DNA of 64,000 bases from an uncultured bacterium (GTDB lineage: Bacteria; Babelota; Babeliae; Babelales; Vermiphilaceae). The position numbers and the translations under genes are program-made. Positions 5,455 to 57,251 of the stretch are shown here, piece by piece. The DNA lies in the NCBI GenBank assembly GCA_963701085.1, contig OY969561.1, positions 224,001 to 288,000 on the forward strand, written 5' to 3'. The notes beneath the pieces were generated by a model that saw only the letters and a program-made list of their open reading frames with translations, had not been told where the DNA came from and did no database searches. Position 1 is the first letter of the stretch. Every line of letters begins with the position of its first letter.

Positions 5455-6690
5455 ATGATTGATCTTACGTTACTTCGAGAAAACCCTGAACGTGTTATAG
5501 CTGCGCTTAGTAAAAAAGATCCTCATTATGATGTGACACAGCTTATATCGCTGGATAAAGAGCTTCGTGCATTAAAAAATGAAGTTGAATTGTTGCGTTG
5601 TACTAAAAATGAATTAGCTCAGCAGGGCAAATCGGGAATAACTCCTGAATTGCGTGAGCAATCGATTGCTCTTGGCAAATTATTAAAAGAAAAAGAATCG
5701 GCGCTTGAAGCATTAGAACACGAATTTAATGAACATTATCTTGCATGCCCAAATATTTTGCTTGATGAAGTTCCCGCGGGAAATAAAGAAGAAAATATGG
5801 TGGTGAGCATGTTTGGGCAAAAGCCATCGTATTCATTTACGCCAAAAAATCATCTTGATCTTGGTGAAAAACTTGGATGGATAGATTTTGAGACGTCCAC
5901 AAAAATAAGTGCTGCAGGACTTGCTTTATATAAAGGCGAAGGCGTTGCGCTTCTTTTTTCTTTGGCGATGTTTATGCTCAAGCATAACAAAAAGCATGGA
6001 TTTAACTTTGTATTGCCTTCATTGTTTGTGAATGAAAAATCATTAGAAACAACCGGTAATTTTCCTAAATTTAGAGATCAAGTGTTTGCAGTGCCTTCTG
6101 ATGATCTGTTTTTAACACCAACATCAGAAGTTAATCTTACCAATATGTATCGCGACCATATTTTTGCAGGTTCAGAGTTGCCGCTGCGCATGACAGCGTT
6201 CACGAGCTGCTTTAGACGTGAAGGTGGTGCGTATGGTTCCAGCGAGCGTGGTCTTATCCGTATGCGTCAATTTGAAAAAGTAGAAATTGTTTCTCTGTGT
6301 AGCCCTGAGACTTCTGAACAAGAGCATGAGCGTATGCTTGCATGTGCAGAAGGTATATTACAAGCTTTAGGCTTGCATTATCGCGTTATGTTGCTTGCAG
6401 GTCAGGATGCATCATGGGCTTCTGCTAAAACATATGATATAGAAATCTGGTGCCCAGGTCAGAATGAATACAAAGAAGTTTCATCAATTAGTAACTGTAT
6501 CGATTTTCAGGCACGTCGTGGTATGATTCGTTTTAAAGAAAAGCCGGAAAGTAAAACGCAGCTTGTTCATACATTAAATGGTTCATCTTTGGCATTACCA
6601 CGATTGATGGTAGCTTTGATGGAAACTTACCAACAGCCTGATGGCACTATTGCAATTCCAGAGATATTGAAAAAAGAAGGATTGTTTTAA
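5455..6690 (+). CDS. serS: Seryl-tRNA synthetase
   Basis: MIDLTLLRENP N-terminal coiled arm; PTSEV, FRREGG..RGLIR.RQFEKVE, EVSSISNC.DFQARR and HTLNGS.LA..R motifs. Confidence 0.98.
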   Translation: MIDLTLLRENPERVIAALSKKDPHYDVTQLISLDKELRALKNEVELLRCTKNELAQQGKSGITPELREQSIALGKLLKEKESALEALEHEFNEHYLACPNILLDEVPAGNKEENMVVSMFGQKPSYSFTPKNHLDLGEKLGWIDFETSTKISAAGLALYKGEGVALLFSLAMFMLKHNKKHGFNFVLPSLFVNEKSLETTGNFPKFRDQVFAVPSDDLFLTPTSEVNLTNMYRDHIFAGSELPLRMTAFTSCFRREGGAYGSSERGLIRMRQFEKVEIVSLCSPETSEQEHERMLACAEGILQALGLHYRVMLLAGQDASWASAKTYDIEIWCPGQNEYKEVSSISNCIDFQARRGMIRFKEKPESKTQLVHTLNGSSLALPRLMVALMETYQQPDGTIAIPEILKKEGLF

Positions 6691-6710
6691 TGAAATTGGC
6701 ATTAAGTTCA

Positions 6711-6819
6711 GCGCTTAATCCTTCAACAAGTTCAGGATGAGCGCAGCGAAGATCCGATAATCTTGTGTTATTTGTATATTCCCCGCGCTCATCCTGAACT
6801 TGTTGAAGGATTAAAGCGC
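6711..6819. repeat. REP-like family A doublet (inverted pair)
   Basis: GCGCTTAATCCTTCAACAAGTTCAGGATGAGCGC (6711-6744) and its near-perfect reverse complement (6785-6819). Confidence 0.95.
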
Positions 6820-6841
6820 ACATATTGAAAAGGATTACTTT

Positions 6842-7405
6842 ATGAAGGTTGCATCTTTTTGCATAGCATTATCACAATGGCTTCCGTTGTTTGTATTTTT
6901 AATGTTTGCACGGTTTTATGATATGACGGATGATTTGTGGCGGCAGGCATTTTATGTGAGTAGCCTTTGTGCTATTCTTGTTACCGCTTTTTTGCTCTAT
7001 AAAAAAATTATTATTGATCGCCTCAGATTTGGGATCAATTTGTTTTTAATGAGTGGAGCGGTTGCTTTTTTAACTGATTCAGAATCAGTTTTGCGTTTTT
7101 TTGAAATGTATAAGGGAGTGGTATTTTTTGGTGGGATTATTGTTGTTGGTATAATCACTACGTTCTTTTCACCGTTAGGCTTTATTGGTATTTCAGTTAC
7201 CAATCAACAGGAATTAAAAAAGAGTTCGCTACTGCTTTTGGGAGCAACAATTGGAGCATTGGTGTGGTCCTTCTTTATGAATGATTATGAATCTATTGTT
7301 TCTATAGTAGTGCCTTTTATAGCATTAAGACTTTTGCGAAAAAGTTTCATTGACTCCCTATTGAAGGGATCTGAAAAGCATAAAAGTGAAGAAGAATTGT
7401 TTTAA
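6842..7405 (+). CDS. Hypothetical multi-pass membrane protein
   Basis: 187 aa with about 6 hydrophobic segments; RBS-like AAGGA upstream. Confidence 0.8.
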   Translation: MKVASFCIALSQWLPLFVFLMFARFYDMTDDLWRQAFYVSSLCAILVTAFLLYKKIIIDRLRFGINLFLMSGAVAFLTDSESVLRFFEMYKGVVFFGGIIVVGIITTFFSPLGFIGISVTNQQELKKSSLLLLGATIGALVWSFFMNDYESIVSIVVPFIALRLLRKSFIDSLLKGSEKHKSEEELF

Positions 7406-7429
7406 ATGTTTATAACTAAATTAATTTGA

Positions 7430-7625
7430 GCGCTTAATCCTTCAACAAGTTCAGGATGAGCGCAGCGAAGATCTGAACGCGTGTTTACTACTGCGTGTCC
7501 TACGAAGCCTTAGCGAAGTTGGGAGCTTGCCGAAGGGTCAGGATGAGCGTAGCGAAGATTCGATAATCTTGTGTTATTTGTATATTCCCCGCGCTCATCC
7601 TGAACTTGTTGAAGGATTAAAGCGC
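7430..7625. repeat. REP-like family A doublet with an internal family B insert
   Basis: Same arms and spacer (GATAATCTTGTGTTATTTGTATATTCCCC) as 6711-6819, plus an inserted segment containing TGTCCTACGAAGCCTTAGCGAAG. Confidence 0.93.
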
Positions 7626-7630
7626 ACATA

Positions 7631-7942
7631 ATGAAGAAGTTTAACATGCAAAATCATTTTTATGTGTATATTTTAAAATGTAAAAATGGAGCGTATTATG
7701 TTGGACATACTGATAATATTGATAAAAGACTGTCAGAGCATCATCAGGGATTAATTGATAAATGCTACACAAAAAAGATGAGGCCTGTAGAATTAATTTT
7801 TGTTCAAGATTTTTGTACTCGAGATGATGCTTTTCACGCGGAACGACAAGTTAAAGGTTGGTCTCGCAAAAAAAAAGAAGCATTGATGAGAGGTAATTGG
7901 GAAGAAATACAAGAATTGAATGCTTTACAGAAAAAAATATGA
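7631..7942 (+). CDS. Small GIY-YIG nuclease (UPF0213/YhbQ-like)
   Basis: FYVYIL-C...YYVGHT...RL.EH...YT...RPV.L...A...ERQVKGWSRKKKEAL; the catalytic Arg and Glu positions appear intact; alternative start at 7646. Confidence 0.93.
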   Translation: MKKFNMQNHFYVYILKCKNGAYYVGHTDNIDKRLSEHHQGLIDKCYTKKMRPVELIFVQDFCTRDDAFHAERQVKGWSRKKKEALMRGNWEEIQELNALQKKI

Positions 7943-7945
7943 AGA

Positions 7946-7986
7946 GCGCTTTAATCCTTCAACAAGTTCAGGATGAGCGCGGGGAA
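7946..7986. repeat. REP-like family A copy, perfect inverted partner of 7585-7625
   Basis: GCGCTTTAATCCTTCAACAAGTTCAGGATGAGCGCGGGGAA is the exact reverse complement of 7585-7625 (41 bp). Confidence 0.95.
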
Positions 7987-8932: not shown

Positions 8933-8971
8933 TAGGCACTTGCGTGCCGTAATTATGAATTGTTTTTTACA

Positions 8972-9082
8972 CCGTTCGTTTCCTTCGACAAGCTTCTTAC
9001 TTCGCTAAAGCTACGAAGGACAGGCAGGACGAACGGAGTTTTATTTATCCCGTTCGTGGTGAGCCTGTCGAACCATACGAAC
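8972..9082. repeat. Composite repeat: family A with nested family B, plus a second A copy
   Basis: CCTTCGACAAGCT[TCTTACTTCGCTAAAGCTACGAAGGACAGG]CAGGACGAACGG followed by CCGTTCGTGGTGAGCCTGTCGAACCATACGAAC. Confidence 0.88.
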
Positions 9083-9098
9083 ACAACTAAATATAATT

Positions 9099-9614
9099 AT
9101 GAAATTAAATGAAAAAACTGGTTTATATGAAAATTATGGTTTGTGGCACGTGCCATTTTGGCAAACACAAACGTTTCGGCTGACAGTGGAAATTGTCGCT
9201 TGTGTTGTGTTGTTATTGGTTGTTGCATGTGTTGTGAAAAAATATCTGCAATATCGCAAAAGAAAAAAACTACCAGTGTGGGATCAAGCACTTTTGGAGC
9301 TGAGTCATTTAAAAAGGGATCACAAGGTTGACGTGGTGCATGGTAGAGAATTTTACTTGACCGTTTCGGCATTAATTAAGAAATATTTTCATGATCGGTT
9401 TGGTTATGATGTGATGGGTAAAACGGATGATGAAGCGGTTCAGTATTTACAAGATAATTATTTAGATGTGCATGGAGTTGAAGAAATTAAGGCATTGTTG
9501 CAGGGTGGCGTAATTATTAAGTTTGCTAATGCACAAGCAGCTCAAGAACAAATTGATCATGATTATGTGCGTGCTGTTGCGATTATTACGCGTACTATTC
9601 CGGAAAAGAAATAG
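9099..9614 (+). CDS. Single-TM protein of the type found after DUF58 in MoxR/Bat loci
   Basis: TM helix followed by basic RKRKK, then AL.EL..L...FY..VS..IK.Y...RFG...KT.DE and KFA motifs. Confidence 0.75.
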   Translation: MKLNEKTGLYENYGLWHVPFWQTQTFRLTVEIVACVVLLLVVACVVKKYLQYRKRKKLPVWDQALLELSHLKRDHKVDVVHGREFYLTVSALIKKYFHDRFGYDVMGKTDDEAVQYLQDNYLDVHGVEEIKALLQGGVIIKFANAQAAQEQIDHDYVRAVAIITRTIPEKK

Positions 9615-13034: not shown

Positions 13035-13073
13035 GCGCTCGTCCTGAACTTGTTGAAGGATATCTTCGAGCGC
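13035..13073. repeat. REP-like family A copy
   Basis: GCGCTCGTCCTGAACTTGTTGAAGGATATCTTCGAGCGC. Confidence 0.9.
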
Positions 13074-17003: not shown

Positions 17004-17037
17004 GCGCTTAATCCTTCAACAAGTTCAGGATGAGCGC
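17004..17037. repeat. REP-like family A copy
   Basis: Identical to 6711-6744. Confidence 0.93.
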
Positions 17038-19016: not shown

Positions 19017-19080
19017 GCGCTCATCCTGAACTTGATGAAGGATTAAGCGCTATAATCCTTCAACAAGCTCTGGCTGAGCC
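19017..19080. repeat. REP-like family A doublet (second arm degenerate)
   Basis: GCGCTCATCCTGAACTTGATGAAGGATTAAGCGC followed by TAATCCTTCAACAAGCTCTGGCTGAGC. Confidence 0.85.
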
Positions 19081-19124: not shown

Positions 19125-20455
19125 CTATTTACCAAAAATCATGTCGTAGGGTAATCGAATAATAGAAAAAACAACATTGAAGACATTGGTAAATCCGGAC
19201 ATAATCCAAGCGAACCAGCCTAATTTAGGCTTTGGCGCAACTTCTTCTTCCTCGTCTTCTGCTTGTTGTTGGGCTTGTTCTTTTTGTTGTTCAAGAAGTT
19301 CGGTTTGGCGCTTAAAATTAACACCTTGTTCTTTGAGTGCTTCTATTTGATTTTGCACACGAGTAACATGTTGTGTTGCTTCGCCAATCAGTTTATTAAA
19401 ATGAGATAAGAAGTCTCGTTCTAGATAGGTACTTATATTTTTTATGTTACGAGCGGCACCTTCTATCATGTAATAAAGTTCGCGTGCTTTTGTATCATTT
19501 AATATATGAGCAATTTCTTTAAAGTTGTCCCATGCTTGTCGTTCAAACTGTCTTACGCGATTGATTTGGTTCATGAGGGTGCCTAAAGCGTCATCAATAG
19601 CATGGTCAAGGTTTGCAATTGATTCAACATCACGCATGAGTTGTTTTAATGCTTCTTCTTGTGGTGCAATTGTTTCATAAAGTGTGCGTTCTTGTTCGCT
19701 GAGATCGCCCTGTGCCTCACGATGTTTTTCAAAGAACTCAACCATCTCTGATAGTATTGTTTGGAGTTCACCTTGTCCAATACCAACATTAAGATAAAAA
19801 GGATCTAAGGCATTTCTATCGAGTTCATTGCGTTTAACAAAAAATACGGTGCGCGATTCCCATATTGCATCAACAAGAAGACGTATTTTTTCATAGCGTT
19901 CTTCGGCGCGTTCCCACCAGATGCGTTTGTAGAGCCAGTTGCCTTGTGGATTTTCAAGAGAAACGGTATCTATTCCTGTGGGTTTTTCTGCTTTTACTGG
20001 TTCTTCCGGAATTACGATAGGTTCATCTTGTACCGGTTCTGGCGCGCCTTCAGGAGCCTTGGGAGATCCCTCTGCCGATGTGTCCCCGCTCGTCCTTGAT
20101 GCTTCGTCAAGCTCAGCAGTAAACGCGCCGCCTGCCCGCAGAAGCCTTGGCGAAGGCGGGTCGAAGGATGGAGTGGAAGCTTCATGCTTTTCCTCCATGG
20201 GTTCTTTGGAGGGAGATGGAATCATCGGGATTTGCTCAGTTGGCATTTGCTCAGTTGGCATTTGCTCAGTTGGCATTTGCTCAGTTGGCATTTCTCAGTT
20301 GGCATTTGCTCAGTTGGCATTTGCTCAGTTGGGGCTTTTTCTGGCGCGATTAGTTGCTCCACTTGATCCCCAGTGGGTGAAGTTTTTTCCTGGGAAAAAG
20401 TAAAACATGGTACTATACTGAGTGCTGTTATCATCATTATTTTAGGTATACGCAT
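19125..20455 (-). CDS. Exported coiled-coil protein with PTEQM repeats and C-terminal hydrophobic anchor; one frameshift near 20294
   Basis: ORFs 20222-20455 (signal peptide) and 19125-20291 join if the 14-bp repeat copy at 20291-20304 regains one G (about 443 aa). Confidence 0.8.
20084..20176. repeat. Composite family A/B repeat inside a coding sequence
   Basis: CCCCGCTCGTCCTTGA...CCTGCCCGCAGAAGCCTTGGCGAAGGCGGG-TCGAAGGATGGAGTGG. Confidence 0.8.
20231..20332. repeat. 15-bp tandem repeat x7 (TTTGCTCAGTTGGCA), encoding PTEQM
   Basis: Seven copies counted directly; the fifth lacks one base. Confidence 0.95.
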
Positions 20456-24825: not shown

Positions 24826-24915
24826 CCCAACTTTCGCTAAAGCTACAGTTGGGGCCCATTTAAGAAGTTTTTGAAATTGCTCCGTTCGTCCTGAGCCAGT
24901 CGAAGGATACGAACG
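24826..24915. repeat. Family B hairpin and family A copy in the tRNA spacer
   Basis: CCCAACT-TTCGCTAAAGCTAC-AGTTGGG (24826-24853); CTCCGTTCGTCCTGAGCCAGTCGAAGGATACGAACG (24880-24915). Confidence 0.85.
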
Positions 24916-33006: not shown

Positions 33007-33147
33007 TTCTTCCCGCGCTCGCCCTGAACTTGTTGAAGGGTTTCCTGAGCGCTCAAAGATATCCTTTAGCCCCAATTTTCACTTTATTCCAATTGGGGTC
33101 CCCATCGAAAGAATGAAGATGGGGGATAGCTGACGAGCGCGGGAGAA
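33007..33147. repeat. Composite family A element
   Basis: CCCGCGCTCGCCCTGAACTTGTTGAAGGG...GAGCGC closed by CGAGCGCGGG; internal TTGGGGTCCCCATC...GAAGATGGGGGATAGCTGA shared with 42005-42107. Confidence 0.85.
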
Positions 33148-41948: not shown

Positions 41949-42136
41949 GCGCTTAATCCTTCAACAAGTTCAGGATGAGCGCGATAAGGATATGGAGTTC
42001 TTATTGGGGACCCCATCGGTCCTTCGACAAGCTTCCTCCTACGCATAAAGCTTCGTAGGACACGGCAGGATGAGCGGGCTGAAGATGGGGAATAGCTGAT
42101 GAGCGCGATAAGGACATGGAGTTCTTATTGGGACCA
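41949..42136. repeat. Composite repeat cluster (A, A with nested B, ~38-bp direct repeat)
   Basis: A copy at 41949-41982; CCTTCGACAAGCT[B]CAGGATGAGCGG at 42021-42077; GATGAGCGCGATAAGGAYATGGAGTTCTTATTGGG occurs twice. Confidence 0.9.
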
Positions 42137-55953: not shown

Positions 55954-56045
55954 TACTTCGCGTAAAGCTTCGTATGGCACGGCCATCTTCGCCCGCTCAT
56001 CCTGAGCCTGTCGAAGGACGTCTGGCTTACGCCAAGGTTTCCTCC
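55951..56045. repeat. Family B hairpin, family A copy and a degenerate B after tRNA-Phe
   Basis: CCATAC-TTCGCGTAAAGCTTC-GTATGG; CCCGCTCATCCTGAGCCTGTCGAAGGA. Confidence 0.88.
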
Positions 56046-57080: not shown

Positions 57081-57228
57081 CTCCGCTCGCCCTGAGTGCC
57101 CCGTTAGGGGTGTATCGAAGGGTGCGACAGAAAAAAGATTTTTTTATTTTTAATATTTTTCTTATTCCGCATCCTTCGATACATTCTCCTACGTTAAAAC
57201 TTCGGAGAACACTCAGGACGAGCGGAGG
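57081..57228. repeat. Family A inverted doublet with inserted loops
   Basis: CTCCGCTCGCCCTGAGTG[..]TGTATCGAAGGGTGCG ... CGCATCCTTCGATACA[B-like]CACTCAGGACGAGCGGAG. Confidence 0.88.
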
Positions 57229-57251
57229 GTGTGATAATCATTACAAACTTT

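Follow-up and report, generated by a model that had tools for sequence, protein, structure and literature searches.

The stretch of DNA analysed here (the window) comprises 64,000 nucleotides of contig OY969561.1 (assembly GCA_963701085.1, positions 224,001 to 288,000 of the forward strand) from an uncultured bacterium of the family Vermiphilaceae (Babelota). The source genome is a single contig of 1,198,634 bp with 37% G+C and is 92.6% complete by marker genes. At positions 7585-7986 the window contains a 402-bp cassette, which consists of a gene for a small GIY-YIG nuclease and two inverted copies of a hairpin repeat. Neighbouring genes are serS, an open reading frame (ORF) for a hydrophobic protein of 187 amino acids (aa) and a DUF58/VWA gene. 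In a repeat search of the window, the arms of the cassette were delimited as 7585-7632 and 7939-7986 (48 nt, 94% complementary, 306 nt apart), and self-matches revealed a core of 41 nt in each arm that is 100% complementary to its counterpart. The reading frame between them encodes 103 aa; the left arm ends 5 bp before its ATG and the right arm begins 3 bp past its stop codon, which confirms the arrangement described in an initial annotation of the window. The true start of the gene may be the ATG at position 7646, giving 98 aa, because the paralogues begin at the equivalent ATG. Folded as single-stranded DNA (ssDNA), the left terminal hairpin has a free energy of -5.9 kcal/mol (z -2.1), with values of -5.9 to -7.5 kcal/mol (z about -2.1 to -2.4) for the arms overall. 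When the whole window was searched with Rfam at gathering thresholds, only tRNAs were recovered and no family was returned for the hairpin repeats.

The protein matches the Pfam family GIY-YIG (PF01541) over residues 10-82 with 65 bits against a cut-off of 22.6 (E 7.6e-18). The sole other match above a curated cut-off, T5orf172, overlaps it on the same residues. The chain ends about 20 residues past the domain, and no further Pfam domain was found in it; in NCBIfam no family scored above its cut-off and only sub-threshold matches were obtained. By sequence, its nearest relatives of solved structure are two UPF0213 proteins, 1zg2 (E 1.3e-14) and 1ywl (E 8.6e-13). Relatives were collected by scanning one genome per species, with 564 confirmed among 600 candidate stretches, and the best 80 of these 564 (49-78% identity) served as homologous loci. 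They span Proteobacteria (several classes), Nitrospirota, Cyanobacteria, Dehalococcoidia, Desulfobacterota, Verrucomicrobia, Fibrobacterota and Babeliales/Dependentiae, among others. The window protein and the homologues from these loci, after removal of rows with in-frame stops or fewer than 80 aa, gave an alignment of 80 family sequences, in which Y13, C17, Y23, G25, R33, T47, E71 and the basic stretch KGWSRKKK are invariant (100%) and H37 is conserved in 97%. The conserved Tyr, Tyr, Arg and Glu are the active-site residues of GIY-YIG nucleases. A search of 1.84 billion representatives yielded 9,865 clusters at E ≤1e-3, 1,384 at 1e-10 and 7 at 1e-30, and the clade is accordingly counted here as about 1,400 clusters (50% identity clusters, E at most 1e-10). 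Many cluster representatives have 110-170 aa or more. The extra length is translated hairpin in at least five of eight fetched proteins (P0001, P0005, P0006, P0021, P0023), with hairpin-encoded stretches such as PELVEG, PFVVSLSNHE, FDKLRANG and LRQAQAER, and such tails are likely to be gene-calling artefacts. At five loci from Sphingobium (L054, L056, L058, L065, L082), an ORF of about 350 aa begins with the GIY-YIG domain, which may reflect either a genuine fusion or read-through beyond the hairpin.

The hairpin repeat is abundant in the source genome. With up to 3 mismatches allowed, the window contains 11 copies of a 22-nt repeat core, compared with 0 in 100 shuffles, and a definition by loop plus stem identified 14 hairpins in the window. 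Genome-wide, 130 core copies have up to 4 mismatches and 14 are exact. Five of these 14 lie within 1.3 kb of the cassette gene, in keeping with the initial annotation, which had placed the densest cluster of near-identical copies around this gene. The repeat sites that it had listed at 6711, 6785, 7430, 13035, 17004, 19017, 33015 and 41949 were recovered as such; those at 9049, 20084, 24880 and 55992 are more divergent, and in the variants at 8972, 42021, 57081 and 57170 the loop contains additional sequence. Hairpins are strongly intergenic, with 29 of 146 hairpin centres located in long ORFs, which cover 83% of the genome. Of the six GIY-YIG domains detected in the genome, one belongs to an open frame of 348 aa and five to small genes. 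An inverted hairpin pair encloses four of these five genes with equal spacing, each pair being of its own variant and one of them carrying an extra small stem-loop inside the loop. The fifth small gene, which lies outside the window and adjoins a tRNA, is divergent (84 aa) and has another type of repeat in its flanks. Among hairpin neighbours less than 600 bp apart, 39 pairs are convergent, 3 are divergent and 0 have the same orientation. Thirty-five of the convergent pairs are gene-less doublets, palindromes of about 85 bp whose cores are 13-24 bp apart. Four convergent pairs have a long spacer, and in three of these (338-346 bp) the spacer contains a GIY-YIG gene. The cassette gene thus occupies the position of a doublet centre, and the central GCGC or GAGCGCTC of the doublets is found on both its sides. 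In many doublets two unlike arms recur together at several loci, and the doublet itself has therefore been copied as a unit.

A near-identical hairpin stands beside the genes of the 80 homologous loci. It consists of a CCGTTCG arm, an inner stem of 3-4 bp and a conserved 13-nt loop, TGAGCYTGTCGAA. The loop motif occurs within about 100 bp of the gene at 66 of the 80 loci (both sides 42, upstream only 8, downstream only 16, neither 14); when a 3-bp stem was required in addition, the counts were 31, 12, 20 and 17, respectively. Its density is 8.1 per kb near the gene and 0.29 per kb beyond 600 bp, a 28-fold difference, so that the enrichment of the repeat in the flanks of homologues, as expected from the initial annotation, was borne out here as well as by the bracketing of the paralogues; the association of gene and repeat far exceeds chance. 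The motif is oriented, with 52 plus versus 15 minus copies upstream and 61 minus versus 32 plus copies downstream. The downstream hairpin often starts ahead of the stop codon, and many called proteins therefore run on into it.

The structure of the element was analysed in an alignment of 108 flanking hairpins, in which the loop columns were fixed by the selection of the hairpins and the stem columns were not. The inner stem co-varies (columns 14-32: UA 49, CG 45, GC 6; columns 15-31: CG 81, GC 19; columns 16-30: CG 83, GC 16), and each of its pairs is broken in just 2-3 of 106 distinct rows. The observed co-variation score was reached in 0 of 500 shuffles, and all slid versions of the structure scored far below it. 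Pairing of the outer CCGTTCG stem is limited to about 55-65% of rows. Within the loop, positions 4 and 10 also pair: in the source genome 103 of 151 hairpins have A-T, 43 have G-C and 5 another combination, and G-C accounts for 205 of 210 in the 80 loci. There are more G-T than A-C pairs (129 versus 60), an excess that would fit the folding of one given strand and not a symmetric cruciform, although plain sequence conservation could also explain it. In thirteen nested hairpins and in the loop-insert variants, the extra stem always sits at one place in the apical loop, which would be either a preferred insertion point or a tolerated extension. Such hairpin-in-hairpin forms were observed at L011, L014, L024, L033, L054, L056, L058, L065, L076, L078, L082 and L086 and at 57081-57125 of the window; the nested content is either the loop module once more or a small stem-loop unrelated to it.

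Nuclease and repeat also occur together across the phylum, as the initial annotation had anticipated. In a sample of 201 genomes, a narrow 17-nt motif was found in 71 (1 to about 120 copies) and its reversed control in 0. Among the 64 genomes that encode a close homologue (E ≤1e-17), 48 have the motif, compared with 23 of the 137 others, corresponding to an odds ratio of about 15; the relatives are not independent, so p-values overstate the association.

Evidence for movement of the cassette was obtained from congeneric genomes, where empty serS-DUF58 sites had been proposed as a check. The serS-DUF58 site is empty in G113, G006 and G015, with a gap of 11-21 bp and no repeat. In G160, serS, the 187-aa ORF and the DUF58 gene are present without the cassette, and 17 bp correspond to 636 bp of repeats plus cassette in the source genome. 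The closest cassettes share 82-85% DNA identity, with a match that spans window positions 7585-7986 from arm to arm (query 2130/2136 to 2526/2532), and they are located elsewhere, one site being common to G015 and G104 and another occurring in G005. The unit has therefore moved. In the source genome, the site occupied in G015 and G104 is an uninterrupted TAATG stop/start overlap, and the site occupied in G005 holds a gene-less doublet of a different subtype. The G005 site was considered as a case of homing or of deletion, and both were rejected: the elements belong to different subtypes, their spacers cannot be aligned, and they were read as independent insertions. On these comparative grounds, the nuclease gene and its hairpins are taken to move as one unit bounded by the repeats.

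A conventional transposase that could account for this movement was looked for in the single-contig genome. No Y1_Tnp/RAYT (PF01797), rve, DDE_Tnp_1 or TnpB domain was found, in agreement with the initial annotation, which had seen no transposase in the window; other transposase families were outside this search. Three tyrosine recombinases are encoded, two of them of about 310 aa. One ORF of 367 aa bracketed by a convergent hairpin pair was evaluated as a transposase and discarded; it is single-copy, has a signal-peptide-like start and an HExxH motif, and matches nothing in PDB or Pfam. No other ORF bracketed by convergent hairpin pairs is transposase-like. Long repeats of the genome were considered as insertion sequences and rejected, being arrays of paralogues (BNR, WD40, unknown). 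These are diverged arrays of 2-4 kb genes at about 376-430 kb and 472-477 kb of the genome, one BNR, one WD40 and others without a Pfam match.

The closest published parallel is the Ssn system of Chenal et al. 2025 (Nat Commun 16:2388, PMC11893778). According to that article, N. meningitidis SsnA consists of a single GIY-YIG domain (94 aa, CDD cd10448) and binds and cuts ssDNA just upstream of the NTS hairpin, on one strand only, and leaves double-stranded DNA and RNA untouched. Three Ssn homologues cut beside their own repeats, and an SRM hairpin was reported near 71% of the Ssn homologue genes (both sides in 42%). The article's set of Ssn sequences numbers 7,051. Both Ssn and the clade described here combine a single-domain GIY-YIG protein of about 95-100 aa with a gene flanked by inverted multi-copy hairpins, which occur in tens to hundreds of copies per genome, plus upstream and minus downstream, and both have a wide, patchy distribution. 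The catalytic spacing agrees as well, with Y6, Y17 and E64 in SsnA and Y13, Y23 and E71 in the window protein, whose 103 aa are below the 150 aa set for single-domain GIY-YIG proteins of the Ssn type. Like Ssn genes, the window gene lies between inverted members of a multi-copy hairpin family. The repeats differ: the hairpin of this clade is a conserved 13-nt loop in a variable stem, whereas the published SRM is a CGTC tag outside a short-loop hairpin.

Ssn-type control loci were chosen by searching 401 genomes of one order for the NTS consensus, which was present in 67, and by taking small GIY-YIG genes from NTS-rich genomes. NTS copies lie on both sides of the gene in L111 and L114 and downstream only in L124, and the SRM expression does recover them in all three. 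At the 80 loci of this clade, SRM matches were found on both sides in 0 and on one side in 1. Conversely, the hairpin of this clade is present at 0 of 7 Ssn-type or UPF0213-type loci. For relatedness of the protein, the published definition asks for a blastp match to SsnA with E <1e-10 and at least 75% cover in a proteome search; L111 and L114 served as stand-ins for SsnA. The window protein is 36% identical to them over 76-78 of 103 residues, with pairwise E values of 2e-12 and 2e-10, and against a whole proteome its E value would most likely exceed 1e-10. Its BLAST scores are 35-54 bits with four in-frame Ssn-type proteins and 51-53 bits with two UPF0213-type proteins, which puts it at about the same distance from both groups; members of its own clade score 114-126 bits. 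A tree built by a quick method places the four usable Ssn-type rows in a clade of their own (support 100), reached by a branch of 2.6 changes per site; the L114 row was in the wrong frame and was disregarded, and the fifth paralogue of the source genome falls on a very long branch. From these comparisons it is concluded that the clade is a sister of the Ssn systems with its own, differently built hairpin, and it most likely works like an Ssn system. By its repeat, which lacks the SRM, the clade falls outside Ssn as defined by Chenal et al., and by its protein its membership is doubtful.

Other known systems resemble the cassette in part. REP/REPIN sequences with RAYT genes, or REPtrons (Nunvar 2010; Bertels and Rainey 2011; Ton-Hoang 2012), share with it a small gene flanked by inverted hairpins, intergenic position, abundant gene-less copies and inverted doublets as the repeated unit. 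They differ in their enzyme, a Y1 HUH transposase (PF01797) that has no match in the source genome and whose fold is not that of GIY-YIG proteins. The CGTC-tagged REP super-family of Di Nocera et al. 2013 (PMC3733652) is similar in being composed of abundant palindromic repeats without a dedicated transposase that its authors could find. Those repeats have stems of 8-9 bp, loops of 4-5 nt and a terminal CGTC/TGTC tag, whereas the present repeat has a 13-nt loop and no tag outside the stem; by a comparison made here, their CGTC-tagged layout appears identical to that of the NTS repeats, which were linked to Ssn afterwards. UPF0213 proteins (PDB 1zg2, BH0048; 1ywl, EF2693), the prokaryotic 'Slx1-like' group of Dunin-Horkawicz et al. 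2006 (PMC1564403), consist of the same minimal domain. That group is described as mainly vertically inherited and not mobile, and the UPF0213-type loci L120 and L123 have no hairpins and a different middle motif. Insertion sequences and miniature inverted-repeat transposable elements would be expected to go with rve, DDE_Tnp_1 or TnpB domains and target-site duplications, none of which was found here. A GIY-YIG homing endonuclease would be expected to have a separate DNA-binding domain, and none was found in the window protein.

The explanation favoured here, with moderate confidence, is that 7585-7986 is a GIY-YIG cassette of a large multi-phylum family that is sister to Ssn. By analogy with SsnA, the nuclease would bind its own hairpin when the strand is single-stranded and would cut beside or within it. 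Because of this presumed binding and cutting, the hairpin is regarded as the likely recognition element of the enzyme, and the gene would travel with two copies of it. With less assurance, the approximately 130 gene-less hairpins (35 doublets and singles) may be satellites of the cassette, either deletion derivatives or landing sites, that are spread or kept with the help of the nuclease. This resembles the proposal of the initial annotation, an autonomous element accompanied by non-autonomous repeats, which is plausible, has comparative support for the link between gene and repeat and for the mobility of the cassette, and is weakened by hairpins that persist in genomes in which no small GIY-YIG gene was found. 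Its analogy to REP/RAYT is not new: in their Discussion, Chenal et al. note that NTS-ssnA-NTS resembles an insertion sequence and compare it with RAYT/REP. They also report cutting of ssDNA beside the hairpin, and the idea thus has a published precedent.

Several results weigh against this explanation. The window protein is 31-36% identical to NTS-flanked Ssn-type proteins and lies on a long separate branch, so that the analogy crosses a long branch, and the SRM search motif occurs 0 times in the source genome (0-3 times in 5 simulated genomes). By the definition used, 14-17 of the 80 loci have no hairpin adjoining the gene. Across the phylum, the 23 motif-bearing genomes without a close homologue are matched by 16 of 64 genomes that have a close homologue and lack the narrow motif. 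In G110, G084 and G174 the motif is present and no small GIY-YIG gene was found; G110 is one contig, 95% complete, with 10 motif copies, and the sole GIY-YIG domain of these genomes lies in an open frame of about 430-450 aa, a candidate uvrC-like gene by size. Single hairpins of the source genome have no clear bias towards one replication arm, and neither a target-site duplication nor a rule for the choice of insertion site was recognisable when occupied and empty sites were compared. Finally, no strand-joining or strand-transfer chemistry is known for GIY-YIG enzymes, which leaves the integration of the cassette unexplained.

Among the alternatives, it is possible, if doubtful, that the system was once mobile and has been domesticated, the nuclease now serving the host, as proposed for SsnA in Neisseria, through its cutting of hairpin-bearing ssDNA and thereby shaping recombination, repair or the uptake of foreign DNA, with the repeats as genomic marks. 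SsnA of N. meningitidis has a function of this kind, symbionts are enriched among the repeat-rich genomes and the phylum of the source genome is, by the records of relatives, one of symbionts (PMC11893778 for SsnA and the enrichment). The catalytic residues are moreover kept throughout the family. The four paralogous cassettes of this 1.2-Mb genome, which differ in repeat variant and are non-syntenic between congeners, look more like ongoing turnover than like a single conserved gene of the host, and presence across the phylum is patchy. A homing-type selfish gene is unlikely. According to this scheme, doublets exist and spread for other reasons, the nuclease cuts the doublet centre, repair from a gene-bearing copy with arms homologous to the doublet halves inserts the gene, and the filled site is immune. 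The location of the gene exactly at a doublet centre, with the central motif on both its sides, and the ratio of doublets to genes of 35 to 4 agree with it, and GIY-YIG homing endonucleases are an established class (PMC1564403). It is opposed by the syntenic sites in relatives that have no doublet at all, which indicate that the initial arrival, at any rate, did not use a doublet seen there, and by the single-domain build of the window protein, and it leaves the spread of the doublets themselves unexplained. That the hairpins are ordinary intergenic terminators or RNA elements, abundant enough to bracket small genes by chance, is highly improbable and already contradicted, for although they are strongly intergenic and the neighbouring 187-aa ORF is also bracketed by a convergent pair, the 28-fold density beside homologues in the 80 multi-phylum loci, with fixed distances and orientation, the lack of a terminator-like site at the cassette and of an Rfam match, and the movement of the cassette as a repeat-bounded unit all speak against it.

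Beyond the favoured explanation, it is suggested tentatively, as a possibility of low probability, that the cassettes form a distinct minimal class of DNA transposons in many phyla, in which a GIY-YIG protein of about 95 aa acting on ssDNA hairpins mobilises a 400-bp cassette and gene-less repeats and the host's replication or repair does the joining. If true, this would supply the long-missing dedicated enzyme of a very widespread family of REP-like repeats. The general kind of system, a small GIY-YIG nuclease with genome-wide hairpin repeats, has been published (PMC11893778). Literature searches, with the large supplementary homologue tables of that article outside their scope, did not recover this protein clade, its cross-phylum hairpin with a conserved 13-nt loop and a co-varying stem, the position of the gene in the middle of a doublet or empty-site evidence of cassette movement. 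The empty sites are direct comparative evidence that the cassette moves as a unit, for which the published Discussion raises movement as an idea only. Should the enzyme cut its own hairpin as Ssn does, the 13-nt loop in a free stem would add a new, sharply defined recognition element to the few site-specific ssDNA nucleases, enzymes that are in demand as tools. The findings also explain a nuisance, namely that many database members of the family and 'hypothetical proteins' bear translated-hairpin tails (PELVEG, FDKLRANG). In the window, the short 'hypothetical' ORFs at 6647-6823 (-) and 8960-9112 (+) carry such hairpin-translation stretches.

The features of the window are listed in Table 1.

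Table 1. Nuclease gene and hairpin repeats in the window, with positions counted from its first nucleotide.
Feature	Position	Strand	Remark
Left terminal hairpin repeat	7585..7625	+	inverted repeat continues to 7632 at 94%
Small single-domain GIY-YIG nuclease gene, 103 aa	7631..7942	+	PF01541 E 7.6e-18
Right terminal hairpin repeat	7946..7986	-	exact reverse complement of left terminal repeat
Exact-core hairpin copy, 120 bp upstream of cassette	7430..7465	-	
Degenerate copy, 67% identical to reference copy	7521..7556	-	strand taken from reference copy at 7434-7469, of which it is a direct repeat
Exact-core hairpin copy, spacer between serS and 187-aa ORF	6711..6745	-	
Exact-core hairpin copy, spacer between serS and 187-aa ORF	6785..6823	+	
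Hairpin core, widespread form (CCGTTCG arm, TGG/CCA inner stem)	9057..9075	+	
Hairpin core, doublet-type arm	13042..13060	+	
Hairpin core with exact 22-nt core, adjoins tRNA gene	17012..17030	-	
Hairpin core	19024..19042	+	degenerate partner at 19055-19076 (-)
Divergent hairpin core	20100..20118	-	
Hairpin core, widespread form, between tRNA genes	24889..24907	+	
Hairpin core, doublet-type arm	33022..33040	+	
Hairpin core with exact 22-nt core	41957..41975	-	
Hairpin core, widespread form	56000..56018	+	

A second type of repeat has a long insert (core around CTTCGCTAAAGCTACGAAGG) within the hairpin frame and occurs at 8972-9040, 42021-42085 and 57170-57230 of the window; it also flanks the divergent 84-aa GIY-YIG gene (genome positions 843600-844450). 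No Pfam family matches the 187-aa hydrophobic ORF at 6842-7405 (+), which lies between serS and the cassette. G160 has this ORF in the same place; it is missing from G113, G006 and G015, where serS adjoins the DUF58 gene, and in the source genome it is itself bracketed by a convergent hairpin pair. Among sequencing runs, the best-matching DNA run contained 0.29 of the sampled words and no RNA run matched; contigs built from reads were short and thinly covered. A read-derived joint from 6811 to 7943 was unusable, since it links two repeat copies with just 28 nt on one side. Further repeated modules were observed outside the hairpins (window positions 7466-7584; genome positions 680249, 909783 and 957704), where they build up larger mosaic palindromes; they include a unit of about 25 nt that ends in a T-run and a unit that holds GTAAACAC. 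The inverted repeat of the G104 cassette measures 93 nt and is made of two modules.

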